A stretch of DNA of 64,000 bases, taken from the NCBI GenBank assembly GCA_044368015.1, contig JBIPLF010000004.1, positions 246 through 64,245 of the forward strand, in the 5' to 3' direction. This DNA is from Rickettsiales bacterium (GTDB taxonomy: Bacteria; Pseudomonadota; Alphaproteobacteria; Rickettsiales; RI-342). Within the stretch, counting starts at the first letter, position 1. Each line of letters begins with the position of its first letter. A program made the translations under genes and the position numbers. Of this stretch, positions 4,333-62,577 are shown one piece after another. The notes beneath the pieces were generated by a model. That model saw nothing but the letters and a program-made list of their open reading frames with translations, was not told where the DNA came from and made no database searches.

Positions 4333-4460
4333 CCCTCTCCCTTTGGGAGAGGGCAGGGTGAGGGAAAATCTTACCCCCTCCCGGTCTCGCTGTCGCGACT
4401 CGGCGGGCTACGCTCGTCTCACGCGGCTCGCCTCCCTCCCCCGCTTCGCGGGAGAGGGGA
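4333..4460. repeat. GC-rich palindromic element, family A composite
   Basis: ccctctccctttgggagagggcagggtgaggg hairpin plus the module ccccctcccggtctcgctgtcgcg...ctacgctc...cctccctcccccgcttcgcgggagagggga. The second module recurs at 17191-17254. Confidence 0.8.
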
Positions 4461-4511
4461 AATTAGGGCGGCCATCTGTTGCGGTTTGTCTCATTACTCG
4501 GAGGGAATCCA

Positions 4512-8920: not shown

Positions 8921-9008
8921 CGTCATTGCGAGGAGCGTAGTGACGAAGCAATCCAGCCTTCTTCATGTTTCTGGATTGCCGCGCTCCCTGCGGTCGCTCG
9001 CAATGACG
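8921..9008. repeat. palindromic element, family C (cgtcattgcgagg...agcaatcc / ggattgc...cgcaatgacg)
   Basis: Outer arms cgtcattgcgag / ctcgcaatgacg and inner arms gcaatccag / ctggattgc. A partial copy lies at 27107-27147. Confidence 0.8.
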
Positions 9009-11653: not shown

Positions 11654-12238
11654 ATGACAGCACCATCTAACTTTATCCTCGCCTCCGCCTCTCCCATCCG
11701 GGCGCAGATGCTACGTGAGGCCGGATGCGTGTTTGACGTCATTGCCGCCCCCGATAGTGCAGAAGAAGCCACCAAATCCACGCTTGCAGATGCCCCTCCG
11801 CCAGAACGGGCGCGGTTACTGGCCATTGCCAAGGCGAAAGCCGTCAGCCTCACCCACCCGGAACGGCTGGTAGTGGGGGCGGATCAGGTCTGCGCGTTGG
11901 GGAAGAATATCCTCTCCAAACCGGGATCGCGGAAACGGGCGACCCAGCAATTACAGGCACTTTCCGGACAGACACACCACCAGCATAGCGCGGCCTGTAT
12001 CCTGCGCAATGGCGAGCTGCTGTGGTCGGAAGTCGCCACCGCCCACCTCACCATGCATCCCCTGTCGCTCACGGCAATCACCGACTATCTCGACCGCGAC
12101 CAGCCCTTTGGCTCCTGCGGCAGCTACCGGTTCGAGGGGACGGGCAAGGCGCTCTTCAGCCGTATCGAGGGAGATGCCTTCACCATTCAGGGACTTCCCT
12201 TGATTCCCCTGCTTTCTGCGCTACAAAGGGTGGCATGA
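11654..12238 (+). CDS. maf: Maf-like nucleoside triphosphate pyrophosphatase
   Basis: [15 protein letters not shown]-terminus and GSYRFEG / IQGLP C-terminal motifs. Stop overlaps the mutS start (ATGA). Confidence 0.85.
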
Positions 12239-14991
12239 AACCCGCCACCACCCTTCCTTCTGACACCACCCCCATGATGCGGCAATATCTGGGGATTCGT
12301 GAGCAGTATCCCGATTGCCTGCTCTTCTACCGCATGGGCGATTTCTACGAGTTGTTTTTTGAGGATGCCGTACGCGCCGCCGACGCGCTGGATATTGCGC
12401 TCACCAAACGCGGCCAGCATTTGGGAGAGGAAATCCCGATGTGCGGCGTGCCGGTGCATAGCCATGAAAACTACCTGCATCAACTGATCGCCAAGGGCTT
12501 CCGTGTGGCCATTTGCGAGCAGATGGAAGACCCACGCGAGGCCAAAAAACGCGGGGCGAAATCGGTGGTGGCCCGCGATGTGGTGCGGATCGTCACCCCC
12601 GGCACCCTCACCGAAGAAGGGTTGCTGGATGCCAAAGCCTCCAACTACCTGCTGGCGCTGGCGGAGATGCGCGGCCAGTTTGCCTGTGCCTGGCTGGAGC
12701 TTTCCACCGGAGCCTTCCGCGCCCGACTGGTAGAGGAAGCTCAGATTCTGGAACTGCTGGCACGCCTCCGCCCGGCGGAGATTTTGCTATCGGAATCGCA
12801 TATCGGCAAGACTCCCTCCACCGCTTGCGGGGGAGGGTTGGGGAGGGGGTGTCAGGAACATCCTGTCTCTACAAACACCCCCCACCTAACCTCCCCCCGC
12901 AAGCAGGGGGAGGAACTTTCGGGCTTCGCCCTTATATTGGAAGAATGGAAAGAAAAACTCCAATTCCACTCACCCGCCTTTTTCCATCCCGTGCAGGGTG
13001 GCGAGCGTCTAAAACGCCTGTTTGGGACGGCGACGCTCGACGCATTCGGCAGTTTTGAGCAACCGGAAATCGCGGCACTCGGCGCGCTGGTGCAGTATGT
13101 GGAACTCACCCAGAAAGGCGCCCTCCCCCAGCTGCTCCCCCCCGTGCGTGAGGTGGTCGGTTCCACCATGGCGATTGACGCCGCGACCCGCAAAAGCCTG
13201 GAACTCACCCACACCCAGCAAGGTACGCGCAAGGGAAGCCTGCTCGACGCAATCGACCGCAGCGTGACATCCGCCGGGGCGCGGCGGTTGCAGGACTGGC
13301 TTTCCGCCCCGTTGACGCTGCTTGCCCCCATTCAGGCACGGCAGGAGGCGGTGGCCTATCTGCTGGAAACGCCGGAACTCCGCACCCGCCTGCGCGAGAT
13401 TCTGCGTCGCAGTCCGGATCTCGAACGCGCCCTCGCACGGGTGGGGCTGAACCGCGCCAGCCCGCGGGATTTGGTCAGTATCCGCGATAGCCTAGAACGG
13501 GCGGGCGGGCTTGAAGCTCTCCTCGCCTCGCCGCGTTTGCCAGAGCATAGCCGGTTATTGGCGGAAACCGTGACGCATCTTTCCGGCCATGCGCCGCTCG
13601 TCACCACCCTGCACCGCGCCCTGAAACCAGAGGTGGGGCCGTTCGCCCGCGAGGGGCATTTTATCGCGGAAGGGTATCACCCGGAACTGGATCGGCTGCG
13701 GAGTTTGCGCGATGATAGCCGTCAGCTCATCGCCCGGTTGCAAGCGCGGTATGTGGGCGAGACGCAAATTCCCTCACTGAAAATCCGGCATAACAACATC
13801 GTTGGCTATTATATTGAGATCACCGCCACGCATCAGAAAAAGGTGCCTGAGAGTTTCATCCACCGCCAAACGCTGGCGAGCGCCATGCGCTTCACCACCC
13901 CCGAACTGGTGGAGCTGGAACGGCAGATTCAGGATGCAGGCGAAAAGGCGCTGGCCGTGGAGCTGGAGATTTTCGAGGCCCTGCTGGGTACGATCCGCGA
14001 GGCCTTCGCTCCCATCCGGAAGGCGGCAGAAGCCATGGCACGGCTGGATGCCTGTGCGAGCCTCGCCGAACTGGCGCAGGAGCAGCGCTACGTCAAGCCA
14101 CACCTCACCGACGATGCGCGGTTTTGCATCACGCGGGGGCGCCACCCGGTGGTAGAGCAGGTGCTTGCGGGTGATGCTTTCATCGGCAACGATACCCGGC
14201 TTTCCGAGGAAAGCCATGTATGGCTGCTCACCGGCCCCAATATGGCGGGTAAAAGCACCTTTTTGCGGCAAAACGCGCTGATCGCCATTCTGGCGCAAAT
14301 GGGGAGTTTCGTCCCCGCCGACCATGCGGAAATGGGCCTCGTGGATCGCGTCTTCAGCCGGGTAGGGGCCAGCGACGATCTCGCGCGCGGGCGTTCCACT
14401 TTCATGGTCGAGATGGTGGAAACGGCGATGATTTTACATCAGGCGACCGACCGCTCCCTGGTGATTCTGGACGAAATCGGCCGGGGAACCGCCACCTATG
14501 ACGGGCTGGCGATCGCCTGGGCGACGCTCGAACATCTGCATCAGGTCAACCGGTGCCGCACCCTGTTTGCCACCCATTACCACGAACTAACGGCACTCAC
14601 CGAGCGGTTGCCGAGGCTCGCCTGCCACACCATGCGCGTGCGCGAATGGCAGGGCGGGATTGTCTTTCTGCATGAGGTCATCCCCGGTGCGGCGGATCGC
14701 TCTTACGGGTTGCATGTGGCACGTCTTGCCGGGCTTCCGGCACCGGTGCTGGCACGGGCCGAAACCATTCTGCAACAGTTGGAATCCAAAGAAGCCGGAA
14801 GTGCCGCAGCCCGTGTGGCGGAGTCCCTTCCCCTGTTTGCCTTCGCGGAAACGCAAAGCGCCCCGCCGCCTGCGCCTCCTTCGGCACTGGAACAACAACT
14901 CGCGGCGCTGGATGTGGATAACCTCACCCCCCGCGAAGCACTGGAGTGGTTGTACCGTCTTAAAGGGCCACTCTCCACACAGCCTGCGTAA
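12235..14991 (+). CDS. mutS: DNA mismatch repair protein MutS
   Basis: [34 protein letters not shown] mismatch-binding N-terminus, Walker [24 protein letters not shown] 12235 chosen; the ORF-track start 12022 overlaps maf. Confidence 0.95.
12813..12912. repeat. GC-rich palindromic element, family A, in frame inside mutS
   Basis: tccaccgcttgcgggggagggttggggagggggtg and caccccccacctaacctccccccgcaagcagggggagg are inverted arms. Translated as ...[33 protein letters not shown]... Confidence 0.8.
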
Positions 14992-17030: not shown

Positions 17031-17254
17031 CACCCCTCCCTTGATGGGAGGGGTCGGAATCGTTGACGATTCCGGGGGAGGGTGTCATCCTGAGCGTAGC
17101 GAAGGATCCCTCAGTTTACATAAACCTATCCGTGCTTCGTAAACGGAGAGATCCTTCGGGGATGCATCCTCTCATGATGACCACCCCCTCCCGGCCTCGC
17201 TGGCGGTTCGCTACGCTCACGCCGCTCGCCGACCTCCCCCATCAAGGGGGAGGT
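17031..17254. repeat. nested composite: family A arms enclosing a family B element (17084-17180)
   Basis: cacccctcccttgatgggaggggtcggaatcgttgacgattccgggggagggtg, then gtcatcctgagcgtagcgaaggatccctc...gagagatccttcgggg...catgatgac, then ccaccccctcccggcctcgctgg...cccccatcaagggggaggtg. Confidence 0.85.
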
Positions 17255-19451: not shown

Positions 19452-19545
19452 CCCCCTCTCCCTCTGGGAGAGGGTCGGGGTGAGGGGGGACTTAACTCGT
19501 CCCTCACCCGGCGCTGCGCGCCACCCTCTCCCGGAGGGAGAGGGA
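19452..19545. repeat. GC-rich palindromic element, family A
   Basis: ccccctctccctctgggagagggtcggggtgaggggg ... ccctcacccggcgctgcgcgccaccctctcccggagggagaggg. Confidence 0.8.
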
Positions 19546-19957: not shown

Positions 19958-20842
19958 CTATCCGTTGTTGGCACGTTGTTTGTGCTCGGACGCACAATCG
20001 CGAATGTAATGTAAAAGCACTTCCTTACGGAATGGTTTATGGACAAATCCCCGCGCTCCGTAATCGAAAGCCGTCAGGATGTTGTCCAGATACCCGTGCG
20101 AGCTGAACATCACCACATAGGCATCCTTATCGGCGGCAAGGATACGTTGCAGCACGGCAAATCCGCTTTTGTCCGGGAGATTGATATCCAGAAACACAAT
20201 ATCCGGTGCATAGAGCAGGTAGTTGCCGATCGCATCCTGCGCGGTTTCGGCGGTCACCAGCCGGTAATCGTTTTTGAGTAATTGCCCGGCAATGCGGCGC
20301 GTTACCGGATCGTCCTCCACCAGCATCACATAGGGCGGCTGACGCGTGCCTCGTTGGGTGATGTTGGCCTCCAGAATATCGGGGATCATCTCCACCCCAT
20401 CCAGCAGGCTATCGGCCGTGTGCGGGCTGCGTGCGGCAACCGTCGATGCCTTGCCCTTGGTGGCAATGAGTGTGGCCGCCGCCTGCCATTCCTGTTGCAG
20501 CGCATAGAGTTTTCGGCTGGTGATGCACCAGTCACGCGTGCGTAGCGCATTGCCCAGCAGGGTGGAAAAATCGGCAAACACCTGCTTTTCAACATGGCGG
20601 CCCATCAGGATCACGTCACCGTCGCTGCACAGAAATCCGCAGCTATCGGTATTGTAAAACCCGACTCCAATAAGGTCCTGCAACAGCAGGTGAATCTCAT
20701 CCGGCGAGGCATGACGATCCATGTTATACGGGCGCAGGCCCACATGCTGCATGGTCCAGTTGCGCCAGGTGAGCGGATCATGCCGAATGGCCTCTGCAAT
20801 CTGGGCCAGCAATTCCGGAGCAGTTTCATAGCGTAAATACAT
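19958..20842 (-). CDS. response regulator: unassigned N-terminal domain + C-terminal receiver
   Basis: C-terminal REC (VMLVEDDPVTRR...IVFLDINLPDKSG...GARGFVHKP). The N-terminal ~150 aa have no motif I recognise. Paralogue of 20961..21839. Confidence 0.8.
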   Translation of the reverse strand: MYLRYETAPELLAQIAEAIRHDPLTWRNWTMQHVGLRPYNMDRHASPDEIHLLLQDLIGVGFYNTDSCGFLCSDGDVILMGRHVEKQVFADFSTLLGNALRTRDWCITSRKLYALQQEWQAAATLIATKGKASTVAARSPHTADSLLDGVEMIPDILEANITQRGTRQPPYVMLVEDDPVTRRIAGQLLKNDYRLVTAETAQDAIGNYLLYAPDIVFLDINLPDKSGFAVLQRILAADKDAYVVMFSSHGYLDNILTAFDYGARGFVHKPFRKEVLLHYIRDCASEHKQRANNG

Positions 20843-20890: not shown

Positions 20891-20939
20891 CATCCTGAAC
20901 CCGGAGGGGTCGGAATCGCTTGCGATTCCGGGGGAGGTG
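20891..20939. repeat. short family A fragment (ggaggggtcggaatcgcttgcgattccgggggaggtg)
   Basis: Same ggtcggaatcg-N-cgattccggggg hairpin as at 17054-17080. Confidence 0.75.
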
Positions 20940-20960: not shown

Positions 20961-21839
20961 CTATACGGTTTGTTTGGCGCGCAGATGCGGCGAACGCTGA
21001 ATGGATTCTTCCAGCTTCAGCCGGGTGAAGGGCTTGCCAACAAACCCCTTGGCCCCCATTTCCACGGCGCGCATAATGTTGGCGCGGTCGCCATTGCCAC
21101 TCAACATAACGATATAGGCATCCGGATCGATTTCGCGGAGGCGGGCAAGCAACTCAAACCCGTTGACGTCCGGCAGGTTGATATCCAGAAACAGGACATC
21201 AGGTGCCTGCGTGACATACAATGGCAGGGTGTTGTCCCCGCCATCTGAGAGTACCAACGCATAGGTTTCCGGCAGGGCTTTCCCCACCAGCTTGCGGGAG
21301 AACGCATCGTCCTCGATCACCATCACCGTGACGCGATCGCGGTTGCGGCGACGCTCGGCGAGGGTGGCAATCAATTCCGCCCGCAGGGGAGAGCGTAAAA
21401 TATCCTGTTTGCGGCGGGCACTGTTTTCCTGCGCTTTGGCGATCTGTACTTCCTGCGTCACGGCTTCCTGCGCGGCAATCTGTGCTTCGGCCAGCGCACG
21501 CAGCGGGCTGTAGCTGCGCTCAATGTCATGGAGCATGGCCAGTGAGGCAATCGGCCAGATGAGCAGATCGGAAAAACGGGCTACAATTGTTTCATAACTG
21601 CGAAAACGAATGGTTTCAGCCAGCAGGAGCACATCGCCATTGGTGAAAAAGAATGCCTGAAGCGACGGATCGTCAATCTCATTTTGCAACGCGGTAGCGA
21701 GGAGTTCCGGGGTGATGCTGTGGCGTTGATCGCAGGTTGAGAAGCGGAAATGCAGCACCCTTCCCGGTGTGCGTGCATGGTGCCAGCTATCCAGTGTCTG
21801 GCGGAAGGTACGTTCGGCATGGTCGGTGATGGTCAACAT
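20961..21839 (-). CDS. response regulator: unassigned N-terminal domain + C-terminal receiver
   Basis: C-terminal REC (VMVIEDDAFSRK...VLFLDINLPDVNG...GAKGFVGKP). N-terminal domain is paralogous to 19958..20842 and to the N-terminus of 59860..61083. Confidence 0.8.
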   Translation of the reverse strand: MLTITDHAERTFRQTLDSWHHARTPGRVLHFRFSTCDQRHSITPELLATALQNEIDDPSLQAFFFTNGDVLLLAETIRFRSYETIVARFSDLLIWPIASLAMLHDIERSYSPLRALAEAQIAAQEAVTQEVQIAKAQENSARRKQDILRSPLRAELIATLAERRRNRDRVTVMVIEDDAFSRKLVGKALPETYALVLSDGGDNTLPLYVTQAPDVLFLDINLPDVNGFELLARLREIDPDAYIVMLSGNGDRANIMRAVEMGAKGFVGKPFTRLKLEESIQRSPHLRAKQTV

Positions 21840-22034: not shown

Positions 22035-23432
22035 ATGTCCGACCGTATTCTCTTGGTGGAAGATGACCGTACCCAACGGCTGATGACGCAGCGTTTGTGC
22101 GAGAAGCTGATGGGGTGCACGGTGCTGACCGCGTCGCATGGGTTGGAGGCGATCGGCACGCTGGAGATGGAAGAAGATATTGCTCTCGTCCTCATGGATG
22201 TGCAGATGCCGGTGATGGATGGGCTGACGGCGCTCAAAAAAATCCGTGCCCGCCATGCGGAACTGCCGGTAATCATGCTCACTGGCTCCAGCCAGCCGGA
22301 CGATATCGTCGCCGCGATGCGGGCGGGCGCGACGGATTTCCTCCCCAAACCGGCGGATCCGGAGCGGTTGCGGGTTTCCATTCAGAACGCATTGCGGTTG
22401 CAGGCGCTCGCCCGCGAGGTAGCGCGGCTCAGTCGCGGACAAGGAGAGGCGATTGGCTTCCGCGACCTCATCGGGCATGACAAGGGACTCGCCGACATCA
22501 CCCGCATGGGACGCAAAGCGGCGTTTGCATCCATCCCGGTGCTCATCAGTGGCGAAACCGGTACGGGGAAGGAGATGGTCGCCCGCGCCATCCATGGCGA
22601 AAGCCCCCGCGCTCGCGGGCCGTTTGTGGCGGTGAATTGCGGGGCGATCCCGGAAAAACTGGTGGAAAGCACCCTGTTTGGCCATGAAAAAGGCGCCTTT
22701 ACCGGAGCGATTGCCAAGGCGCTCGGTAAATTCCGCGAGGCCGATGGCGGAACGATCTTCCTCGACGAGGTAGGCGAGCTGCCGCCGGAAGCGCAGGTGA
22801 AACTGCTGCGCGTGCTTCAACAACACGAGGTGGAGCCGGTGGGGGCCGGGCGCACGGTGCCGGTCAATATCCGGGTGATTTCCGCCACCCATCGCGACCT
22901 GCGCGAGGATGTCGCATCCGGGCGCTTCCGCGAGGATCTCTATTTCCGGCTGCATGTGCTGTCGCTCGCCATGCCGCCGCTGCGCGAGCGGGCGGAGGAT
23001 ATTCCCCCACTGGCCAGCCATTTGCTGGACCGCTTTGCCACCAGCGATCGGCTACCCTTCAAACGCCTGTCACCGGAAGCGAAAGCATTACTGCAACGCT
23101 ATGACTGGCCGGGCAATGTGCGCGAACTGGCCAACACCCTGCACCGGGCGCTGGTACTCTCCGAACATGAGGTGCTGGAAGCCACCGATTTCCCCGAATG
23201 CCACCGCACCCCCTCACGGATGGAATCTCTGCCTGCCCTATCCGGGGGAGCATCCCCCTCCACTCCCCTGTTCCTCAATGCCGATGGCACGCTGAAACCC
23301 TTGCGCCAACTGGAGGAAGAAGCGATCCGCTTTGCCCTCTCCCACACCAAGCAGAACGCCACACAGGCCGCCGCTGCGCTGGGTATCGCCAAATCCACGC
23401 TGTATCGGCATTGGGGGAAAGAGACACTGTGA
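22035..23432 (+). CDS. sigma-54-dependent response regulator (NtrC family: REC + AAA+ + Fis-type HTH)
   Basis: REC (ILLVEDD...[13 protein letters not shown]...KP), Walker A GETGTGKE, intact GAFTGA, C-terminal [19 protein letters not shown]. Confidence 0.9.
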
Positions 23433-23457: not shown

Positions 23458-23529
23458 TCCCCCCACTCCTTCACCCGCGCCAGATGCATAAAATCCGAAT
23501 GCGGCGGGCGGCGGTCGGGTGTGGGGCAG
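23458..23529. repeat. direct repeat copy 1 (duplicate of the addB 3' end)
   Basis: 72 bp identical to 23988-24060 except for one C fewer in the leading C-run. Confidence 0.9.
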
Positions 23530-23706
23530 ATTCTACGAAAATATTCGTAACGACGCGTAAAGCATTGGCCCCAAGGTGATTTGACTTCAGTGTTTCACCG
23601 TATTGTCACAAAACACACATGTGCCTGTCACAGTCTGTAGGCAGAGTGCGCATGGTTAGTTACTTAGCCTACAATGCGTAAAAATCACAGAAAAGGAGAT
23701 CAAGTA

Positions 23707-23943
23707 ATGCCAATTCGCGCCGTGCTTCCCACTGCCGACCAAGCAGAAGGAATGGAAATCTATTACGCTATGACAGAGGTTCTGCCAACAAATATTACGG
23801 ATGGTATTTCTTACGCTACTGGTTATCAGCTGACTTGGAGCGATGATCATCTGCCTGATGGATCTACCAAGGAGACAGCGGGCAAACATATACAACGGTA
23901 TATAGAAGAGAAAGCCAAAAAGATTGGTATTGCCATGGGGTAG
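23707..23943 (+). CDS. hypothetical small protein (78 aa) carried by the insert
   Basis: AAGGAG lies 7 nt upstream of ATG 23707. No recognisable motif. The ORF-track start 23674 is also possible. Confidence 0.4.
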   Translation: MPIRAVLPTADQAEGMEIYYAMTEVLPTNITDGISYATGYQLTWSDDHLPDGSTKETAGKHIQRYIEEKAKKIGIAMG

Positions 23944-23984
23944 AGTCCGTTTTGGAGGGATTTGATCTCTGTTGTCGAATCCCC

Positions 23985-26900
23985 TCATCCCCCCCACTCC
24001 TTCACCCGCGCCAGATGCATAAAATCCGAATGCGGCGGGCGGCGGTCGGGTGTGGGGCAGGAGAGATAGGGCGTTTCCGGATCGTCAAACGCAGCAATGA
24101 GTGCCTGCACGCCCGCTTCCGCCTCCCGAATCAGCGTTGGGTGTTTCTCGGGTTTAGGGGTTAGGTATTCCACCACATCCTCACGTCCGTGCAACTTCCA
24201 GTAGGAGGTGGTGAAACTCAGGGGAAGCTCTGGTAAGTCTGCAAACCCGGCTTTGGCGGCAATCAACGCTTCCAGTGTCAATTGGCAGGCAACGCCCTGA
24301 TCAATCTTCTTCTGACTGGGGAGCAGACCAGTTTTGTAATCAATGCAGGCGAGTTCCCCCGTGGAAGGCGCATATTCCAGCCGGTCGGCCTTGGCGCTTA
24401 GCGTAAACGGCCCGGCGGACGCTGCCCATTGCCAGGTGCCGGTGCATTCGCTGAAAAGCTGCAACCCCGTGGCACGCCGCGCTGCGTCTTCCTCCACAAA
24501 CCAGTGGAGAATCTGCATCAGCCGTGGCCACCAGAAATGCCGAATCGCCGGACGTTCCAGCAGTTTCCCCAGTTGGGACGCGGCCTCCTGCTCCATCCAT
24601 GCGATCCGCGCATCGGGAGAAAGTGAAGGAAACGCCAGCGCATAACCCTCCAGAATCGCATGGAGTATCTGCCCGAATTGCAGATGGCTGGGGTCGAGAT
24701 CGAGTTCCTCCAACGCCTTGAGCTTGAGGATTTTCGACGCATAGAGGCTATAGGGATCGCGCAGTAACAGCTCAATTCGCGTCGCCGAAAGTGACCGTGG
24801 CCGCAGGCCTACCGGAGGGCAAGCCGCCACCGGTGCAAGCGGTGTCACGGTTTTCGGTTGGTCCAGCTGCGCCACCCATGCGGGGAAATGCGCGGTACTC
24901 CCCCTCTCCCTGTGGGAGAGGGAGGGGTGAGGGAAATCTGAATCCTGAACTCCGCACTCTACACTCTGCAATCCCCCCACCACCTCCACTCGCTGCCACC
25001 AACGCGAGGGGATGGCCGGGCTTCCCCCCTGTTTGCGGGCGCGGGTGAGGATTACCTCCGGCAGTGCCATCAGGGTAGCAACATCATAGGCCGAACGACC
25101 AATTTCCTCCGTCGTGTCCGGCAACCCCAGCTTCACGCGCATCGGACGGCTGAGCCAGGGGTCGGCCTCTGGCAATGCGGGCCAGGTGCCCTCGTTCAAC
25201 CCGGCCAGAATCACCCGATCGGCCCGTTGCAACCGCGCCTCAATGGGGCTTAGAATCCGCAGCCGTGGATGCCGATGGTAGGGCGCGTGGTAGCTCTCCT
25301 TGCTCATTAATTGCTGCAACACGGCGGCATAATGGCGACCATCCAGCGTAAAATGCTCCTCGGCGGCATCCCACAACGCCTCGCACCACCGGCTGCTGGC
25401 ATGTCCGGTATCCTCGGCCCACAGCCGCTCGGCACCGGGTGCGACATCGCTACTGGCGAGCGCCTCAGCGGCGCGCAGATGCGTCTCCCACAGATCACGC
25501 AGCCTCACCGACCGGGCGGCAAGCAGGCGCGTCAATGGCTCCAGCGCCGCATGGATACGGTCGAACCAGACGCGCATTTCCGGTTCGTCGTGCTGAGCGG
25601 AGCGAAGCATCTCGCCACTTGCTCCAAAGGTTTGTCGCGATGAGAGATCCTTCCGCTTCGCTCCGCTTTGCGTCAGGATGACATCCCGCCACCCCTCCAA
25701 CGTATGAGGCCGCAACCCCCGCAAGGTGTGGATTTCCAGCCTCCGCGCCATGCGACGACAGGCGGCAGGCGTAACCCCCACCACCGCCATCGGGTGTTTG
25801 AGAAGCGCCAGAAACGGCACCGGCGAGAGCGGATCACCCGCCAACTCCACCACCAAACGCAGAAACACCATGGAGGGCAGCGCGGCCACCGGCACCCCAG
25901 CGGAATCGTCCAACTCCACCCCATAGCGTGCCAGCGAGGCAATCACCCGACGCGCCAGCGCCCGATCCGGCGTGACGAGCATCGCCGTCTTGCCGGGGGT
26001 TTCCAACGTTTCGCGCAGCATCATGGCAATGCCAAGCGCTTCGTCCTGGGGGGTGGGGAAGACAGGGTTCAGGATTCGGGATTCAGGGGTCAGAAGTTTT
26101 TCCGTCCCTCTTTCTGAATCCTGAATCCTGAGCCCTGAACCCTGATGCCACGCCTCACTCACCGCTGCTGGCCGCATCACCTCGGCGATCCAGCGGGTGC
26201 GGGGTGATAGCGGCGAGGCACCCGGAAACAACGTCACCGCCTCACGCGGGAGGTTGAGCAGCTCCAGCAGGTTTTTCAGCGCATATTGCGGGTGACCGGG
26301 GGCAATGGCTTTCCAGTAATCGGCATCGCTTTCCTGATCGAGCGGCGGCAGCACCAGCATCCCTTCCGGCATCCGGGCGATGCAACGCAGCAGCCGCGCC
26401 GTGGCGGGCTGACTGCCGGTAGACCCCGCCGCCACCAGCGGAAAGGCGGGCGGATGCGCCTCCCAATGCGCCACCAGCGCCCGCAATTGCCGGTTGCGGC
26501 GATCCACCGGGTCCAGAAAACCAGATTCCTGCACGATCTTCGGCCAATGTTCGGTGAGGATGCTTAAAAACCCCACCACCTCCTGCCAGTGATGCGACAG
26601 ATGCTCCGGTGCCAGATCGCGCAGCTTACTGGTGTCGCAATCATAGCGTTGCCAATCATCCAGCAGACTCGCCAGACTATCGGCCAGCAGCAGCGCGTGG
26701 TCGTGACGGCGAATCGCCTGCGGCAGCGCGCCCTGCCAGCGTTCAATCAGTTGCGCGAGGAGGAATTGCCGGGTCAGCAGCGGAATCGCCGGAGGCAGCG
26801 GCGCAATCTCTTCCAGAATCGCGGCGAGGCTCCCTTCCTGCTCGATATCCCCCAGCGCCGCCATGCGCGGCAGCAGCAGGGGCCGCCCCTCGCTCACCCG

Positions 26901-27056
26901 CACAAAGGCTTCGCGCAACGCCGGAACCGCTCGCTGCGTGGGCAGCAGCACCAGCGTCCGGGCCAGCAACTCGGCCTCGTCCTGCGTGCGATGGATCAAC
27001 CCACGCGCCAGCGTTTCCAGAAATGCCACGCCTGCGGGGATGGTCGTGCAATGCAT
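23985..27056 (-). CDS. addB: double-strand break repair protein AddB (alphaproteobacterial type)
   Basis: 1023 aa. N-terminus TIPAGVAFLETLARGLI and C-terminal PD-(D/E)xK nuclease region ADRLEY...CIDYKTG are typical of alpha AddB. Three palindromic elements are read through in frame. No addA downstream. Confidence 0.85.
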   Translation of the reverse strand: MHCTTIPAGVAFLETLARGLIHRTQDEAELLARTLVLLPTQRAVPALREAFVRVSEGRPLLLPRMAALGDIEQEGSLAAILEEIAPLPPAIPLLTRQFLLAQLIERWQGALPQAIRRHDHALLLADSLASLLDDWQRYDCDTSKLRDLAPEHLSHHWQEVVGFLSILTEHWPKIVQESGFLDPVDRRNRQLRALVAHWEAHPPAFPLVAAGSTGSQPATARLLRCIARMPEGMLVLPPLDQESDADYWKAIAPGHPQYALKNLLELLNLPREAVTLFPGASPLSPRTRWIAEVMRPAAVSEAWHQGSGLRIQDSERGTEKLLTPESRILNPVFPTPQDEALGIAMMLRETLETPGKTAMLVTPDRALARRVIASLARYGVELDDSAGVPVAALPSMVFLRLVVELAGDPLSPVPFLALLKHPMAVVGVTPAACRRMARRLEIHTLRGLRPHTLEGWRDVILTQSGAKRKDLSSRQTFGASGEMLRSAQHDEPEMRVWFDRIHAALEPLTRLLAARSVRLRDLWETHLRAAEALASSDVAPGAERLWAEDTGHASSRWCEALWDAAEEHFTLDGRHYAAVLQQLMSKESYHAPYHRHPRLRILSPIEARLQRADRVILAGLNEGTWPALPEADPWLSRPMRVKLGLPDTTEEIGRSAYDVATLMALPEVILTRARKQGGSPAIPSRWWQRVEVVGGLQSVECGVQDSDFPHPSLSHRERGSTAHFPAWVAQLDQPKTVTPLAPVAACPPVGLRPRSLSATRIELLLRDPYSLYASKILKLKALEELDLDPSHLQFGQILHAILEGYALAFPSLSPDARIAWMEQEAASQLGKLLERPAIRHFWWPRLMQILHWFVEEDAARRATGLQLFSECTGTWQWAASAGPFTLSAKADRLEYAPSTGELACIDYKTGLLPSQKKIDQGVACQLTLEALIAAKAGFADLPELPLSFTTSYWKLHGREDVVEYLTPKPEKHPTLIREAEAGVQALIAAFDDPETPYLSCPTPDRRPPHSDFMHLARVKEWGG
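23988..24060. repeat. direct repeat copy 2 (functional addB 3' end)
   Basis: Starts immediately after the addB stop codon complement (23985-23987) and encodes the last ~24 codons of addB. Confidence 0.9.
24900..24950. repeat. family A hairpin plus family D-like tail, in frame in addB
   Basis: ccccctctccctgtgggagagggaggggtgaggg followed by aaatctgaatcctgaac. Translated on the minus strand as ...VQDSDFPHPSLSHRERGS... Confidence 0.75.
25586..25682. repeat. family B palindromic element, in frame in addB
   Basis: cgtcgtgctgagcggagcgaagcatctc...gagagatccttccgcttcgctccgctttgcgtcaggatgac. Same architecture as 17084-17180 and 40197-40301. Translated as ...SGAKRKDLSSRQTFGASGEMLRSAQHDE... Confidence 0.8.
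26063..26144. repeat. family D palindromic element (gattcagg / cctgaatc repeats), in frame in addB
   Basis: cagggttcaggattcgggattcaggggtcag ... ctgaatcctgaatcctgagccctgaaccctg. Translated as ...GSGLRIQDSERGTEKLLTPESRILNP... Confidence 0.8.
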
Positions 27057-27106
27057 GAGGAAAGCAGCCAGAAATCAGGATTTAGGAAGCAGCAGAACGC
27101 TACAAG

Positions 27107-27147
27107 CGGAGTGAAGCAATCCAGCACAGGAAGCGCTCTGGATTGCC
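27107..27147. repeat. partial family C element
   Basis: gcggagtgaagcaatccag...ctggattgcc shares the inner hairpin of 8921-9008. Confidence 0.5.
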
Positions 27148-27154
27148 ATGTGAT

Positions 27155-28267
27155 CTATCGCTTCCGCTTGGCTTGCAGATGAAACCGCACGGTTACGGCG
27201 TCGGCCACCACTTCGGTGGTTTGCCATGCCCCCTGCCCCACCCCGAACGCATTGCGGGAAAGCGGCACTTCGCCGGAAACGAATGCATCGGTGGCGGTGT
27301 ATTTCTCCAGCACGAAGGGCAGCGTCACCGGCACGGTACGGTCACGGATGGTGAGTTTACCCTCTGCCTGAAACAGGTTTCCCCCCAGTTTGGTGATCTC
27401 GGTAGATTCAAAACGCGCCTCCGGAAACACCTCGCTGGAGAACCAGTCCGCCAGTTTCAGGGTGCTCATCACTTCGGGGTTCAGGGCTTCCAGGCTGTTG
27501 ATATCCACCACCACAGTGATTTCGCTTTGATCCAGATGCTCCGGATCAAATGCAATATCATAATTCACATTGCGGAAACTCCCCAGCACCGGAGCGTTGT
27601 TCTGTGTTGCCACAAAGGCGAGCTCGCTATGCTCTTCCTGCACCTCCCAATGCGGCAGCTTGCGGGATTCCCCCGCGATAGAAGTCAGTGGAAACAGCGC
27701 CCACGTTACCAGCAGCATTTTCAGCGGCAGCATCCGCCGCAGCACGCCGTCTTTCAGCATCGCGTGATGGTAAAGTGCCGCCAGCACATGCAGATGGATC
27801 AACACCAGTAGCCCCCATGCCATCAGCTCATGTGCTTCGCCAAACAGCTCCTGCGCTTCCTTGGATGGCGCAAATAACAGAGGCAGGGTAATGCCCCAAT
27901 TGTACAGCGCCACGGGAAATCCGGCAGCGGTGGAGAGCAGATAACCCGAAAGTGGAATGGCAATCATGAGTCCATAGAGCGCCCAGTGCGCGGCATCCGC
28001 AGCCTTGCGTTGCAGTGGAGCCATGCTGCTGGGGTGCGATGGCACCACCGAAACTACCCGCCACAGCAACCGTGCAACGGCGAGCGCCAGCAGCAACATG
28101 CCTGTTGCCTTGTGCCAGCCGATTAGCGCCAGTTTTTGCGGCCCGAAGGGGAGGTCTTCCATATAAATCCCCACCGCCAGCATGGCGATGATGGCAATCG
28201 CCATACCCCAATGCAGGAGCATGGCGATCCACCCATAGCGTAATTCAGAGTTATTGAGCTTTATCAT
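27155..28267 (-). CDS. cytochrome b561-family membrane domain fused to a YceI-like domain
   Basis: The N-terminal half has four TM helices with conserved His (LLHWGMA..., WHKATG..., HWALYG..., LHVLAALYHH). The C-terminal half is YceI-like (VDINSLEALNPEV...FPEARFEST...GKLTIRD). ATG 28267 is preferred and overlaps the yceI stop. Confidence 0.75.
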   Translation of the reverse strand: MIKLNNSELRYGWIAMLLHWGMAIAIIAMLAVGIYMEDLPFGPQKLALIGWHKATGMLLLALAVARLLWRVVSVVPSHPSSMAPLQRKAADAAHWALYGLMIAIPLSGYLLSTAAGFPVALYNWGITLPLLFAPSKEAQELFGEAHELMAWGLLVLIHLHVLAALYHHAMLKDGVLRRMLPLKMLLVTWALFPLTSIAGESRKLPHWEVQEEHSELAFVATQNNAPVLGSFRNVNYDIAFDPEHLDQSEITVVVDINSLEALNPEVMSTLKLADWFSSEVFPEARFESTEITKLGGNLFQAEGKLTIRDRTVPVTLPFVLEKYTATDAFVSGEVPLSRNAFGVGQGAWQTTEVVADAVTVRFHLQAKRKR

Positions 28268-37724: not shown

Positions 37725-39493
37725 GCACGCTCGCGCACCATCATCTGGAAGGGGTGCGCCGCTGGATGCAACAGCACGGATTGCATGCCTATCTGCTGCC
37801 GGTGAATGACGCGTTTTTCAGCGAATACCCCCCCGCCAGCGAGCGTCGTCTGGAATGGCTCACCGGTTTTAGCGGATCGGCCGGGATGCTCGCCATCACC
37901 GCGCAGAAAGCCCGCCTGTTTGTGGATGGGCGCTACACGCTTCAGGCGGCAAACGAAGTCGATTCCCATTTCTTTGAGGTGGTCAACAGTGCCTCCCTAC
38001 AACCGGAGGTCTGGTTGCGGGATGTACTGTCGCCGGGGATGCAGGTGGGGCTTGACCCCACACTTTTCAGCATACGCAACGAACGGCGCATCCGGCATGC
38101 CCTCAAAGAAGTGCGGATTGCCACCCTCTCCATTCCGGAAAACCCGATCGACCTCTTATGGCAGGACCGCCCTGCCCCGCCGCACAGTCAGGTGGAGGTG
38201 CATCCCATCACCTATAGCGGCAAGATTGTGCCGGAAAAACGCACCGATCTCTCCTGCCTGCTACAGGAACGCCACGCCCATGCCCTGTTTATCGCCGCGC
38301 CGGATTCGGTGAACTGGCTGCTGAATATCCGGGGACGCGACGTGCCCCATACGCCGATCGCGCAACTTCATGCGATGTTGTACATGTCTGGCGAGGTCGC
38401 ATTGTTTGCAGAGAGCGACCGTATTCCAGAGGATGTACGCGAGCATCTGGGGGGTGCGGTGCATCTGCATGATCCATCGGAATTGCAACAAAAGCTCGCC
38501 GATATGGCCGGGGAGCGGGTATGGGTGGATGACGCCCATACCAGCGCATGGATCAAGCAGATGTTAAAAGACGTCAAAGCCTGCATTCTGTACGATCCTG
38601 ACCCTTGTCAGGCGATGAAGGCCGTCAAGAATCCCATCGAGCTGGAGGGGATGCGCAACGCCCATCGGCGCGACGGAGTGGCGCTCACCCGCTTTCTACA
38701 CTGGCTGGAGCAGCAAGTAACAGCGGGCGCGCCGCTCTCGGAATTATCGGTGGCAGAGCGGCTCGAAGCTTTCCGCCGTGAGGATCCCCTGCTGCGTGAT
38801 CTAAGCTTCCCCACCATTGCCGGGTTTGGCGCCAACGGGGCGATTGTCCATTACCGGGCGAGTGAGGCCTCCAATCAGGCCATCCGCGCTCCGGGGTTGC
38901 TGCTGCTGGATTCCGGCGGTCAATACCTGAACGGCACCACGGATGTCACCCGCACCATCGCCATTGGTACGCCCAGCGAGGAACAGAAACACGCCTATAC
39001 CACGGTGCTGAAAGGCCATATTCAACTGGCCATGGCCATATTCCCGCAAGGAACCTGCGGCTCGCAACTGGATGTGCTGGCGCGTGACCCGCTCTGGCGC
39101 GCCGGGATGGATTACGATCACGGCACCGGCCATGGGGTTGGCTGTTATCTGAGCGTCCATGAAGGGCCGCAACGCATTTCCAAACGGGGGGGCGATGCGC
39201 CGCTGGAAGCGGGGATGATCCTCTCCAACGAGCCGGGTTATTACCGGGAAGGCGCGTTTGGCATCCGGCTCGAGAATCGGGTGTCGGTGGTGCCTGCCCC
39301 CCTCCGGGGCTTTCTGGCGTTTGAAACCCTGACGCTCGCGCCGCTGGACCTCTCTCTGATCCTGTCGGAATTACTCTCGCCGGAAGAGAAACGCTGGGTT
39401 CGCGACTACCATCAACGGGTCTATAGCCTGCTGGCCGATCACCTGCCCCACGACACCGCGCAGTGGTTGGAACAGATCGCTCGCCGGAGCTAA
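37721..39493 (+). CDS. pepP: Xaa-Pro aminopeptidase (M24B, aminopeptidase P family)
   Basis: 590 aa with metal-ligand motifs [25 protein letters not shown] overlap with kdsA. Confidence 0.8.
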
Positions 39494-40196: not shown

Positions 40197-40301
40197 GCAT
40201 GCTGAGTGAAGCGAAGTATCTCTCCGCTTGGAATGATGTGACAGATGCCTTGTTCTGTTGAGAGATGCTTCCCCTTCGCTCCACTCAGCGTCAGCATGAC
40301 G
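40197..40301. repeat. family B palindromic element
   Basis: gcatgctgagtgaagcgaagtatctctc...gagagatgcttccccttcgctccactcagcgtcagcatgacg. Confidence 0.8.
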
Positions 40302-44844: not shown

Positions 44845-44877
44845 AAACGCACTTCTTGGTTAAGAAAAATGTACCAG

Positions 44878-45135
44878 CTAACGTAACACCCATTCACCGG
44901 TTTCACGGATGGCAGCGTACATGGCATCTGGGGCGAGATCAACTCCTCCCGGCCATGTCACGGCTCCGCCCTCAATATAGGCCTCTGCAAATGTGGCGGG
45001 ATTCCTCAAACTGGCAAAAACACCCGTCAGATGCGAAGGCTCAAAACGTACGACCCCCCTCGTTCCATCCAGAAAAGAGACCTGAAGCTCAAGGGGGGGG
45101 GACACCATTATTTCACGTACATCCCAATACATCAC
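44878..45135 (-). CDS. DUF2442 domain protein
   Basis: 85 aa. The C-terminal GGAVTWPGGVDLAPDAMY resembles the DUF2442 signature. GTG 45135 or ATG 45132 start, 1 nt after the preceding stop. Confidence 0.65.
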   Translation of the reverse strand: MMYWDVREIMVSPPLELQVSFLDGTRGVVRFEPSHLTGVFASLRNPATFAEAYIEGGAVTWPGGVDLAPDAMYAAIRETGEWVLR

Positions 45136-45136
45136 T

Positions 45137-45409
45137 CTACTCCAGTGGGGGAACGGGTTTTGGAAGCTGTTTCGCCTGACAGCAAGCCCAGTTGTCCAAC
45201 AGCTCCTTCTGATGCAATTCAGCCCAATCCATGATCAGTTCTTGTGCACGACGGGGCACATTGCCTTCGATACATCTTAAATTTTCAATGTCAAATGTCG
45301 CTTTATGACCACCATATTCCGCGTGGAAGTGTGGCGGAGCATGATCGTTAAAGAACATCCGGATCACAATACCAAAGAATTGGCTGATAGTGGGCATCGT
45401 TTTTTCCAA
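45137..45409 (-). CDS. DUF4160 domain protein
   Basis: MPTISQFFGIVIRMFFNDHAPPHFHAEYGGHKATF matches the DUF4160 N-terminal signature. The likely real start is ATG 45397, since the track start 45409 is TTG. Confidence 0.7.
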   Translation of the reverse strand: MEKTMPTISQFFGIVIRMFFNDHAPPHFHAEYGGHKATFDIENLRCIEGNVPRRAQELIMDWAELHQKELLDNWACCQAKQLPKPVPPLE

Positions 45410-45655
45410 TCATGAGGGCAATCCGTTTTCATCATACCCCAGTATTTCGTCCGGAGAGCGTGGATCCAGTACAGGAAGGGCTGCACACTCCGCTCCAATC
45501 GCCAGAATCCGCCGGATGCGCTCTTTCCGCCCCTCCTCTTCCTGAATGCTTTTCGTCAAGGCTTCTTCGATCGCCTGCTCCACGGAAATACCACGCATGA
45601 TCGCCAACGCCTCTGCCATTTTTGGAATGGCTGGGTTCTCGATATGGAGTTCCAT
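45410..45655 (-). CDS. vapB: VapB-type antitoxin, Rv0623/PSK-operon transcription factor family
   Basis: 81 aa. The layout (N-terminal ribbon region, charged linker, C-terminal ECAALPVLDPRSPDEILGYDENGLPS) parallels M. tuberculosis VapB30-type antitoxins. Starts 1 nt after the nuoE stop. Confidence 0.75.
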   Translation of the reverse strand: MELHIENPAIPKMAEALAIMRGISVEQAIEEALTKSIQEEEGRKERIRRILAIGAECAALPVLDPRSPDEILGYDENGLPS

Positions 45656-45656
45656 G

Positions 45657-47455: not shown

Positions 47456-49864
47456 ATGACCGAATCCGCCCTGCAACGTTACCCGCTGCTGCCGTTACGC
47501 GATATTGTCGTGTTTCCGAGCATGATCGTGCCCCTGTTCGTGGGACGCGAGAAGTCCGTCAAGGCGCTGGAGGATGTGGTGCGCACGGATAAGAAAATCC
47601 TGCTCGTCGCGCAACGCAACGCCAATCAGGATGATCCCGGTCCCAAGGATTTATACCGCGTGGGGACGCTCGCCAGCATCCTGCAACTGCTGAAACTCCC
47701 CGATGGCACGGTGAAAGTGCTGGTGGAAGGGCTGGAGCGCAACAAGATTGTCGAATATCTGGAAGCCCCCGGCTACTACGCCGTCCACGCAGAAAAACTG
47801 CATGATGCATCGGGCAGCGCAGAAGATGTGCAGGCGCTTACCCGCTCGCTGATGGCGCGGTTTGAGGAATATATCAAGCTCAACAAGAAGATTCCGCCGG
47901 AAGTGCTGGGCGCACTGAATCAGGTAGAAGATGCCGGAAGGCTGGCCGATACCATCGTCTCACACATGGCGCTCAAAATTCCGGACAAACAGCAGGTGCT
48001 GGAGCTTTCGGACATCGCCAAGCGGTTGGAGAAAGTCTACGGCTTTCTGGAGAGCGAAATCAGCGTGCTCAACACGGAGAAACGCATCCGTTCCCGCGTC
48101 AAGCGCCAGATGGAGAAAACCCAGCGCGAATATTATCTGAATGAGCAGATGAAAGCGATTCAGAAAGAGCTGGGCGAAACCGAGGAAGGCAAAGACGAAT
48201 ACAGCGAGCTGGAAGACAAGATCAAAAAAACCCGCATGACCAAAGAGGCGAAGGACAAAGCCAAAGCGGAGATGAAAAAACTCCGCACCATGAGCGCGAT
48301 GTCGGCGGAAGCCTCGGTGATTCGTAACTATCTGGAATGGCTGGTGAGCATTCCGTGGAAGAAATTCTCCCGCGTCAAGAAAGACCTGCGCGAAGCCCAA
48401 AGCGTGCTGGATCACGACCATTACGGGCTGGAAAAGGTCAAGGAACGGATTCTGGAGCATCTGGCCGTGCATCAACGCACCGGCGCGGTGCAGGGGTCGC
48501 TGCTATGCCTTGTCGGCCCTCCAGGTGTAGGAAAAACCTCGCTGGCACGCTCTATCGCACGGGCCACGGGCCGCAAATATGTGCGGATGTCTCTTGGTGG
48601 TGTGCGGGACGAAGCCGAGATTCGCGGCCATCGCCGCACCTATATCGGCTCCATGCCGGGGAAAATCATCCATAGCATGAAGAAGGCCGGAGCCTCTAAC
48701 CCGCTGTTACTGCTGGATGAAATCGACAAAATGGGGCATGATTTCCGGGGCGACCCGGCCGCCGCCCTGCTGGAGGTGCTGGACCCTGAACAAAATAAGG
48801 AATTCAGCGATCACTATCTGGAAGTGGATTACGACCTCTCCAATGTGATGTTCATCTGCACGGCGAACTCGCTGAAAATGCCGCGTCCGCTGCTCGACCG
48901 GATGGAGATCATCCGCCTTTCCGGTTACACGGAACGCGAGAAGGTGGAAATCGCCAAGCGCCACCTCATCGCCAAGCAACGCAAAGAACATGGGGTGAAG
49001 GAAGGCGAACTGACCATCACCGAAGACGCCCTGCGCGACACCATCCGCTACTATACCCGCGAGGCGGGAGTGCGGAATCTGGAACGGGAACTTGCCAAAC
49101 TCTGCCGTAAAACGGTGCGGGAAATCCTGTTAGGCGGTACGCAGCATGTGACGATCACGGCGGAGAATCTCAGTGAATATCTGGGCGTGCGGAAGCATAA
49201 TTTCGGCGTGGCAGAGCTGGAAGATCTGGTGGGCGTCACCACCGGCCTTGCCTATACCGAGGTCGGCGGCGACCTGCTACAAATTGAAGCGGTAACCGTT
49301 CCCGGCAAGGGCAAGCTCACCATCACCGGACAGTTGGGCGAAGTGATGCAGGAATCCGCGCAGGCGGCAATGAGCTTTGTGCGCTCGCGCTGTCTGGATT
49401 TTGGCATTATTCCACCGGAATATCAGAATGTGGATATCCACGTCCATGTTCCGGAAGGCGCGGTGCCGAAGGACGGCCCCTCGGCGGGTGTCGCCATGAC
49501 CACCACGATTGTTTCCGTGCTCACCGGCATTCCGGTGCGGAAAAACGTGGCCATGACGGGCGAGATCAACCTGCGCGGCGCGGTGACCGCCATCGGCGGC
49601 TTAAAGGAGAAGCTCCTCGCGGCGCTGCGTGGCGGCATTGATACCGTGCTGATCCCTCAGGAGAATGTGAAAGACTTGGAGGACATCCCCGATGAGGTCA
49701 AAAACGGCCTGACCATCATCCCTGTGCTCACGGCAGAGGAAGCGCTGAAAATCGCCCTCTCCCGTCCCTTTGAGCGCCGGGAATGGACCCCTCCCCTGCC
49801 CGCGATCCCGCTCGCCGCCATCGCGGAGGAAGAGGCGGATGACGAGGTGCGGCGGAAGCATTAG
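47456..49864 (+). CDS. lon: ATP-dependent protease Lon
   Basis: LON N-domain, Walker A GPPGVGKTS, catalytic Ser motif PKDGPSAGVAMTT. Confidence 0.95.
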   Translation: MTESALQRYPLLPLRDIVVFPSMIVPLFVGREKSVKALEDVVRTDKKILLVAQRNANQDDPGPKDLYRVGTLASILQLLKLPDGTVKVLVEGLERNKIVEYLEAPGYYAVHAEKLHDASGSAEDVQALTRSLMARFEEYIKLNKKIPPEVLGALNQVEDAGRLADTIVSHMALKIPDKQQVLELSDIAKRLEKVYGFLESEISVLNTEKRIRSRVKRQMEKTQREYYLNEQMKAIQKELGETEEGKDEYSELEDKIKKTRMTKEAKDKAKAEMKKLRTMSAMSAEASVIRNYLEWLVSIPWKKFSRVKKDLREAQSVLDHDHYGLEKVKERILEHLAVHQRTGAVQGSLLCLVGPPGVGKTSLARSIARATGRKYVRMSLGGVRDEAEIRGHRRTYIGSMPGKIIHSMKKAGASNPLLLLDEIDKMGHDFRGDPAAALLEVLDPEQNKEFSDHYLEVDYDLSNVMFICTANSLKMPRPLLDRMEIIRLSGYTEREKVEIAKRHLIAKQRKEHGVKEGELTITEDALRDTIRYYTREAGVRNLERELAKLCRKTVREILLGGTQHVTITAENLSEYLGVRKHNFGVAELEDLVGVTTGLAYTEVGGDLLQIEAVTVPGKGKLTITGQLGEVMQESAQAAMSFVRSRCLDFGIIPPEYQNVDIHVHVPEGAVPKDGPSAGVAMTTTIVSVLTGIPVRKNVAMTGEINLRGAVTAIGGLKEKLLAALRGGIDTVLIPQENVKDLEDIPDEVKNGLTIIPVLTAEEALKIALSRPFERREWTPPLPAIPLAAIAEEEADDEVRRKH

Positions 49865-50003
49865 CCCCCTCCCTGTCCCTCCCCCGCGTTGCGGGAGAGG
49901 GGACCGGAGGGAAAGCCTCTCCTGATACACATACGCTGATCGTAGAGCGCGATGGTGCATCAGGTCCCCTCTCCCGCAACGCGGGGGAGGGACAGGGAGG
50001 GGG
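49865..50003. repeat. family A element with perfect 41-bp inverted arms
   Basis: ccccctccctgtccctcccccgcgttgcgggagaggggacc (49865-49905) is the exact reverse complement of 49963-50003. It starts 1 nt after the lon stop. Confidence 0.9.
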
Positions 50004-50047
50004 TAAATTTCACTTGCTTCAGTCCATGAGACTCGCAGAATAACGCC

Positions 50048-62481: not shown

Positions 62482-62565
62482 CCCCCCCTCCCTTGATGGG
62501 AAGGGGATAGGGGTATTTTGAAGGTATCACCCCCTCCCTAACCCTCCCCCATTCAGGGGGAGGGA
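62482..62565. repeat. GC-rich palindromic element, family A
   Basis: ccccccctcccttgatgggaaggggataggggt ... caccccctccctaaccctcccccattcagggggaggg. It fills the tig-pyrH spacer and abuts the pyrH start codon. Confidence 0.8.
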
Positions 62566-62577
62566 ACAAGGCATCGC

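Follow-up and report, generated by a model that had tools for sequence, protein, structure and literature searches.

The window analysed here, a stretch of 64,000 nucleotides (nt) of contig JBIPLF010000004.1 with a G+C content of 58%, contains the DNA-repair genes addB and mutS, and short structure-forming repeats are translated in frame within both of them: three in addB, which we call E1, E2 and E3, and one in mutS. By its protein matches the host, an uncultured alphaproteobacterium, stands closest to Rhodospirillales, from which both the nearest MutS and the nearest AddB come (for MutS, Azospirillum, Oceanibaculum and Caenispirillum at 57-59%), and it is not a Rickettsia. The initial annotation of this DNA had described the addB reading frame as open, had placed three hairpin-forming elements in it and had quoted their peptides, and all of this was found as described. 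The two genes and their elements are the following.

addB, 23985 to 27056, minus strand: 1023 codons without interruption.
E1, 24900 to 24950, in addB, residues 703-719: a single intrastrand-triplex motif followed by a 13-nt heptamer-type tail.
E2, 25587 to 25682, in addB, residues 459-490: a palindrome, 96 nt long, belonging to the GTCATGCTGAGCG...CGCTCAGGATGAC family.
E3, 26063 to 26144, in addB, residues 305-332: an 82-nt hairpin made of inverted arrays of about 4.7 CTGAATC-type heptamers.
mutS, 12235 to 14991, plus strand: 918 codons, intact.
mutS in-frame palindrome, 12805 to 12914: two inverted triplex-type motifs with 40-nt arms at 12813-12852 and 12875-12914.

The product of addB is an alphaproteobacterial AddB. 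It scores 849 bits against TIGR02786 (addB_alphas; cutoff 486.5), the match spanning protein positions 4-1021, its C-terminal part carries a PD-(D/E)XK nuclease domain (PDDEXK_1, residues 755-1000), and the Joint Genome Institute gene call on the source contig (sample 3300059473) gives the identical single AddB of 1023 residues. About 100 positions that are invariant in 84 AddB proteins are retained, including the DYK nuclease motif D906-K908, and the third-position G+C of 0.72 is typical for genes of the window. A sequence search of AddB against the PDB gave no match; a fold search with an AlphaFold model built on an 84-sequence alignment (mean predicted local distance difference test score, pLDDT, of 85.7) returned Bacillus subtilis AddB (3u4q chain B) as the top structure, with a TM-score of 0.57. 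Judged from its sequence, the addB gene looks functional, and AddB and MutS are most likely proteins that still work and are merely "decorated".

Could addB instead be a pseudogene, or might its open frame be an illusion produced by chimeric mis-assembly? The contig is metagenomic, addA is not adjacent to addB, and addB's 3′ end is duplicated (71 nt) around foreign DNA. Against such decay or artefact, 1023 codons stay open in DNA of 58% G+C, the hidden Markov model (HMM) score lies far over the cutoff over the full length, the invariant residues are kept, the third-position G+C is that of the other window genes, and every element is flanked on both sides by collinear addB in one frame, unlike what a chimeric join would give. 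We regard this explanation as exceedingly improbable.

As to the surroundings of the gene, addA does not adjoin addB, and a convergent sigma-54 response regulator gene (22035-23432) follows it. An exact 71-nt direct repeat (23459-23529 and 23990-24060) duplicates the last 22 or so addB codons, and its two copies bracket 460 bp of DNA with a lower G+C content (45-49% vs. about 60%), which contains an open reading frame (ORF) of 89 residues on the plus strand (23674-23943) with a good Shine-Dalgarno sequence; this ORF had no match in Pfam or PHROG. The appearance of the interval 23459-24060 is that of a short piece of foreign DNA which entered the addB 3′ end and regenerated the C-terminus, which now reads ...KEWGG-stop, while the displaced copy reads ...KEWGEVA-stop.

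The core of E1 (24902-24933) has the sequence CCCTCTCCC-TGT-GGGAGAGGG-A-GGGGTGAGGG and is translated on the minus strand as (V)QDSDFPHPSLSHRERG, with a net insertion of 15 residues, or 45 nt (24900-24944). It has a stem of 9 bp that closes a loop of 3 nt, and a G-rich block comes after these as the third strand; taken simply as a hairpin, E1 is modest (z = -2.35, a value reached by 4 of 200 shuffles). Relatives of the core CCCTCTCCCTGTGGGAGAGGGAGGGGTGAGGG occur in the window, where chance would give none, at 4333-4367 (32 of 35 positions identical), 19454-19488 and 19523-19545. These belong to the following features.

E1-family copy, 4333 to 4367: intergenic, 3′ of an S41 peptidase gene.
E1-family inverted motif pair, 19454 to 19545: intergenic, the strongest hairpin in the window.

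A blastn search with E1 found a copy 90-94% identical in 4037 of 5426 complete Escherichia coli genomes, with no annotated feature beneath it, and a 21-mer from E1, CCCTCTCCCTGTGGGAGAGGG, is listed in Table 1 of PMC4666352. That paper (Holder et al. 2015, Nucleic Acids Research) describes the intrastrand triplex motif "TMECO" of E. coli, for which Table 1 lists CCCTCTCCCTGTGGGAGAGGGCCGGGGTGAGGGC, and reports that in E. coli MG1655 it is "always located intergenically", with inverted pairs at five sites. E1 has the same pyrimidine-purine-purine layout, CCCTCTCCC-N3-GGGAGAGGG-N-GGGTGAGGG (PMC4666352; Hoyne et al. 2000), and the inverted pairs of the five E. coli sites have their counterparts here in the mutS element and in 19454-19545, each of which is such a pair. 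By its layout and its relatives, E1 is a TMECO-type motif and a member of a dispersed repeat family. Unlike the motifs of MG1655, which are intergenic, the motif is translated here within repair genes, once singly and once as an inverted pair, and the triplex motif as oriented in addB, with its C-rich strand in the mRNA, contains no stop in any frame. The E1 tail at 24937-24949 (TCTGAATCCTGAA, 13 nt) is identical to part of E3. This tail, together with one locus (L030), had hinted that heptamer arrays travel with triplex motifs, an idea that we rejected as a triplex 9-mer lies within 300 nt at 1 of 120 genome loci, which does not exceed background.

Among the in-frame cases of the window, the element in mutS is the clearest. 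MutS matches the E. coli MutS structures with E = 2.5e-185 and its nearest homologues are 57-61% identical; the palindrome, whose predicted fold has -39.1 kcal/mol (z = -7.3), adds a clean insertion of 36 residues, which is missing from 19 of the 19 nearest homologues and falls on a gap in the alignment with the E. coli MutS structures as well.

E2 is translated as VILTQSGAKRKDLSSRQTFGASGEMLRSAQHD, with a net insertion of 25 residues (25590-25664). It has a perfect 13-nt stem inside a longer imperfect palindrome, with a predicted folding energy of -24 kcal/mol (z = -3.6) that was equalled in 0 of 200 shuffles. Two further loci in the window are related to it.

E2-family copy, 40199 to 40296: intergenic, upstream of a glycosyltransferase gene, aligning over both arms.
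E2-family relative, 17083 to 17178: intergenic, more diverged, with a weaker alignment.

Outside the window, the arm motif CTGAGYGRAGCGAAGYATCTC occurs in at least 120 metagenome contigs, and E2 fits the consensus of the external copies from end to end, namely tGTCATGCTGAGCGAAGCGAAGCATCTC, a variable interior, and GAGAyCCTTCGCTkCGCTCAGGrTGACA. By this fit E2 belongs to a dispersed and widespread family of environmental palindromes. Of 38 external copies in which a second arm can be recognised, not one is read through by an ORF that extends for 60 codons or more to both sides, and in-frame translation is therefore unusual for the E2 family too. A literature search with the arm sequences as text strings found no paper describing the palindrome. 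We rejected E2 as a CGTC-tagged member of the repetitive extragenic palindromes (REPs): the architecture is wrong, with a stem of at least 13 bp and a 46-nt interior, and CGTC lies inside the right arm and is not a terminal tag. The palindrome GTCATGCTGAGCGAAGCGAAGCATCTC...CTCAGGRTGACA (loci L121-L240), with strongly conserved arms and a variable interior, is very widely distributed in metagenomes from soil, peat and sediment.

E3 is translated as QGSGLRIQDSERGTEKLLTPESRILNPV, and its net gain is 11 residues only. Its arms of 33 nt are 85% complementary, and the hairpin is predicted to be very stable for its composition (-27.5 kcal/mol, z = -8.2, 0 of 200 shuffles as good). No independent copy was found within the 64-kb window, where the traces are the 13 nt in the E1 tail and a weak match of 16 of 21 positions at 27066-27095. 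The heptamer 18-mer CTGAATCCTGAATCCTGA is found in at least 120 species-representative genomes of many phyla, mostly in one-sided tandem arrays, with an inverse arm nearby at 12 of 120 loci. Heptameric arrays are known as GGGAATC in Xanthomonas and as GGGGAYT/STRR in Nostoc (Rehm et al. 2015, PMC4692102), where they consist of tandem 7-nt units, as the arms of E3 do, are dispersed in the genome, sometimes as inverted pairs, and are mostly intergenic, with an intragenic minority of 7-11% in Xanthomonas and 32% in Anabaena. The E3 unit differs from these, being CTGAATC (GATTCAG) and not GGGAATC; each arm has no more than about 4.7 such units, which are degenerate, and the window shows them at one locus only.

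A local origin has to be weighed at least for E3, which could have arisen in situ by inverted duplication or slippage of native addB codons. The small net gain of 11 residues would fit such an origin, as would the lack of an independent copy in the window and the second arm, which encodes LLTPESRI and lines up with the conserved aLxGLxRI strand of the homologues. On the other hand, the CTGAATC heptamer arms are of a repeat type present in at least 120 genomes of many phyla, some of them as inverted pairs, an identical 13-nt stretch stands in the E1 tail, and the two arms of E3 are only 85% complementary. We consider an in-situ origin of E3 improbable; insertion with loss of adjacent codons and local origin are both possible for this element.

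Are these segments insertions into addB? A profile HMM of 83 AddB homologues assigns insert states to 15 residues at E1, to 25 at E2 and to 8+3 at E3, and E1 and E2 are missing from all 83 aligned homologues. Loop lengths were counted between fixed anchor residues in our protein (the query) and in the 83 homologues, together with four control intervals.

E1 site: query 37 residues; homologue median 22, maximum 30; 0 of 83 at least as long.
E2 site: query 70 residues; homologue median 45, maximum 62; 0 of 83 at least as long.
E3 site: query 35 residues; homologue median 25, maximum 39; 2 of 83 at least as long.

Of the four control intervals, three are of constant length and one differs by a few residues, the query lying at its median. 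The element sites are thus length-variable while the controls are near-constant, and these sites represent indel-tolerant loops of the AddB family. In the AddB model, the same places fall on three of the internal stretches with the lowest confidence: ten-residue means of the pLDDT are 65-71 for residues 301-330, 49-60 for residues 461-490 and 42-57 for residues 691-720, and E2 forms the tip of a helix-loop-helix. In the model, the insertion sites thus appear as surface loops compatible with the host fold. The alignment of orthologues that the initial annotation had proposed bore it out in that the loops are variable and the query is the longest at E1 and E2, but not at E3, which overlies native positions and is equalled or exceeded in length by two of the 83 homologues.

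The reading frame is kept at every site. The frame in use is open each time, among 4 of 6 open frames in E1, 2 of 6 in E2 and 1 of 6 in E3, and the net insertions of 45 nt (E1) and 75 nt (E2), as well as the 96-nt E2 palindrome, are multiples of three. The earlier claim that only stop-free insertions of a multiple of three are left agrees with the open frames and with the net lengths of E1 and E2; the 82-nt hairpin of E3 leaves a remainder of 1 on division by three, its frame being kept by the net gain of 11 residues. In the same way, the statement that the segments are insertions and not native codons stands for E1 and E2, which lie in variable loops and are absent from the 83 homologues, but not for E3, which overlies about 16 native positions; and the statement that copies of the families are found between genes elsewhere in the window is right for E1 and E2, while E3 has no independent copy.

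The best reading of these observations, which we hold to be probable, is that dispersed selfish repeats have entered the genes passively and have survived purifying selection there. Insertion with selection is preferred because E1 and E2 belong to repeat families, are absent from the 83 homologues, lie in variable loops and keep the frame. According to this model, the genome would be littered with unrelated short structure-forming repeat families (triplex palindromes, the GTCATGCTGAGCG type, heptamer-array hairpins and the GAAGCAATCCAG type), which would spread by some route and leave most copies between genes and a minority inside them. Copies inside genes would be removed unless their length keeps the frame, they bring no stop in the host frame and the site is permissive, that is, a surface loop of variable length in which 11-36 extra residues may leave the fold intact. 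The survivors, three in addB and one in mutS, would then be translated as loop decorations. We infer both the order of events, insertion followed by selection, and their neutrality. The elements are best explained as genomic parasites or structural DNA motifs, and not as adaptations of AddB.

Several points weigh against this reading. The closest non-identical AddB among 5.8 billion proteins is 43-45% identical, and a scan of genomes with addB peptides found no relatives; because without a close relative no empty site is shown, the insertions are deduced from distant homologues only. E3, with its 27 codons, covers some 16 native positions, the conserved LxGLxRIDC strand among them, and the window contains no other full copy of its family. 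No target-site duplications were seen when the four intragenic elements were read by eye, and a comparison of about 40 genes of the window with Pfam revealed no transposase, no REP-associated tyrosine transposase (RAYT, IS200/IS605-type) and no insertion sequence. The sequence is a metagenome assembly. Finally, there are about 13-15 repeat loci in the 64 kb, and the four that are intragenic and in frame all lie within two DNA-repair genes of about 43 genes, which neutrality alone does not predict. A higher tolerance for inserts is, however, to be expected of large proteins that are modular and have loose loops.

The last of these points bears on the alternative that the repeats are kept because they change repair capacity, either through the activity of the protein or through an instability that turns the genes off and on. 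In the switching variant, slippage of heptamers or deletion induced by hairpins or triplexes would produce hyper-recombining or mutator subpopulations. Four of four in-frame elements of the window are in DNA-repair genes, and the addB locus has in addition a repeat 47-115 nt upstream and the foreign 460-bp insertion at its 3′ end. In E. coli, TMECO motifs have been associated with instability of the genome at a local scale (PMC4666352), there has been speculation on hypermutable phenotypes for REP-tagged repair genes (PMC3733652), and the gain or loss of one 7-nt unit would shift the frame. However, there are just two perfect tandem heptamers, so that slippage would be rare, the UvrD-type helicase of the window carries no element (UvrD/Rep-type gene, 54716-56914), and the inserts lie in loops that vary across all AddB proteins, as passive tolerance predicts. 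Adaptive decoration or switching is therefore, in our view, unlikely, and we think it very unlikely that the repeats in addB and mutS form a contingency locus that reversibly disables double-strand-break or mismatch repair. If this were true, there would be mutator or hyper-recombination subpopulations in a free-living alphaproteobacterium, and an explanation would be at hand for the recurrent link between intragenic palindromes and repair genes to which Di Nocera et al. drew attention.

Passive insertion followed by selection, the preferred reading, resembles what is known of the Rickettsia palindromic elements (RPEs). RPE-1 to RPE-10 (Ogata et al. 2000, 2002), as covered in a 2024 review (PMC10969869), lie in frame in unrelated housekeeping genes, and their peptides were judged fold-compatible. 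Likewise, the elements described here belong to multi-copy palindromic families dispersed in the genome (E1 and E2; E3 has one full copy), and their in-frame copies, three in addB and one in mutS, keep the ORF. The differences are that the host is not a Rickettsia (58% G+C, nearest to Rhodospirillales), that the elements measure 45-108 nt vs. about 100-150 nt, and that they are G+C-rich and match families of E. coli and of the environment, by which they are set apart from the RPEs without a direct alignment to an RPE consensus. The process would be RPE-like in mechanism, but the elements, by their composition and matches, do not belong to RPE families. The initial annotation, which had proposed an RPE-like, selection-filtered process, was thus apt as to the mechanism, whereas the elements themselves are unrelated to RPEs (E1 being of the TMECO type, E2 environmental and E3 a heptamer array). 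[quoted passage not shown] Its suggestion that three elements in one repair gene could modulate the function of AddAB is overstated.

In several species, GTAG/CGTC REPs occur inside known ORFs (Di Nocera et al. 2013, BMC Genomics 14:522, PMC3733652), and these intragenic REPs are concentrated in genes for DNA synthesis and repair, among them uvrABCD, recBCD, polA and dnaE2, for which the authors speculated on hypermutable phenotypes. The likeness to our elements is considerable: these are short and mostly intergenic palindromes, of which a minority is translated and several may be inserted in one gene, and the authors consider flexible linkers or loops as the insertion sites. REPs differ, however, in their unpaired GTAG/CGTC tag, the CGTC REPs having stems of 8-9 bp, loops of 4-5 nt and a CCA tail, while E1 and E3 are without a tag. 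The hosts here are addB and mutS, neither of which turned up in the main text of PMC3733652 ("mutS" has 0 occurrences there), and three unrelated families are found in one gene. MITEs such as QMITE2 in Coxiella, ERIC, BOX and the Anabaena MITEs are non-autonomous repeats that are sometimes fused in frame with host ORFs; our elements share their inverted arms but are shorter, and neither a target-site duplication nor a parent insertion sequence was seen.

The process is thus already known from Rickettsia and from REP repeats and is not unprecedented; what the window adds is the extension of a known phenomenon, selfish DNA in coding genes, to an uncultured G+C-rich alphaproteobacterium. New are the lineage of the host, addB and mutS as targets, the presence of three unrelated families within a single gene, and the classes of repeat found in genes, namely the TMECO type (always intergenic in MG1655), the GTCATGCTGAGCG palindrome and the heptamer-array hairpin (the arrays being mostly intergenic). 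AddB and MutS join the repair proteins with such inserts, which strengthens an unexplained pattern, the clustering of intragenic palindromes in genes for the replication and repair of DNA. If four in-frame copies per about 43 genes held genome-wide, the in-frame density would be far above that reported for Rickettsia conorii in PMC10969869, and the organism would be a good system for comparing neutral loop decoration with changed repair activity.

When the window was scanned for local folds of unusual stability, most of those returned were repeat loci between genes, and the sites in mutS, E3 and E1 were returned as well. The E1 family has 3-4 copies in the 64 kb, the E2 family has three and E3 has one full copy, and the genes flanking the repeats were confirmed by Pfam. 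In Rfam, no family reached its gathering score with any of the elements, and at a permissive E-value there were only chance hairpin matches to miRNA precursors. One further feature lies close to addB.

[quoted passage not shown]

This fourth palindrome family has the form GTCATTGCGAG...GAAGCAATCCAGC / CTGGATTGCC...CTCGCAATGAC; its copy at 8921-9008 is intergenic, with a strong predicted fold (z = -6.8), and the one at 27103-27170 is diverged. A further triplex-like family, CCCCCTCCCTrTCCCTCCCCCGC..GCGGGAGAGGGGACCGGA, is present at 1580-1690, 49860-50008, 4422-4465 and 62530-62573. Two of these loci are long intergenic palindromes with arms 95% identical, and the copy at 49860 begins at the lon stop codon.

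The remaining observations concern other genes of the window. NuoF was considered as another carrier of an in-frame insert on account of its long Pfam span and was rejected, as it aligns 1:1 with mitochondrial NDUFV1. The genes nuoF and nuoE are usually adjacent; here they are separated by a gap of 810 bp (44845-45656). The interval 38461-38570 in the Xaa-Pro aminopeptidase gene has an unusually stable fold (z = -4.6), belongs to no repeat family of the window and is probably native sequence. A 35-nt hairpin, GGAGGGGTCGGAATCG..CGATTCCGGGGGAGG, occurs at 17047-17081 and at 20903-20937 with 91% identity, the second copy lying between the tandem paralogous response-regulator genes 19958-20842 and 20961-21839.

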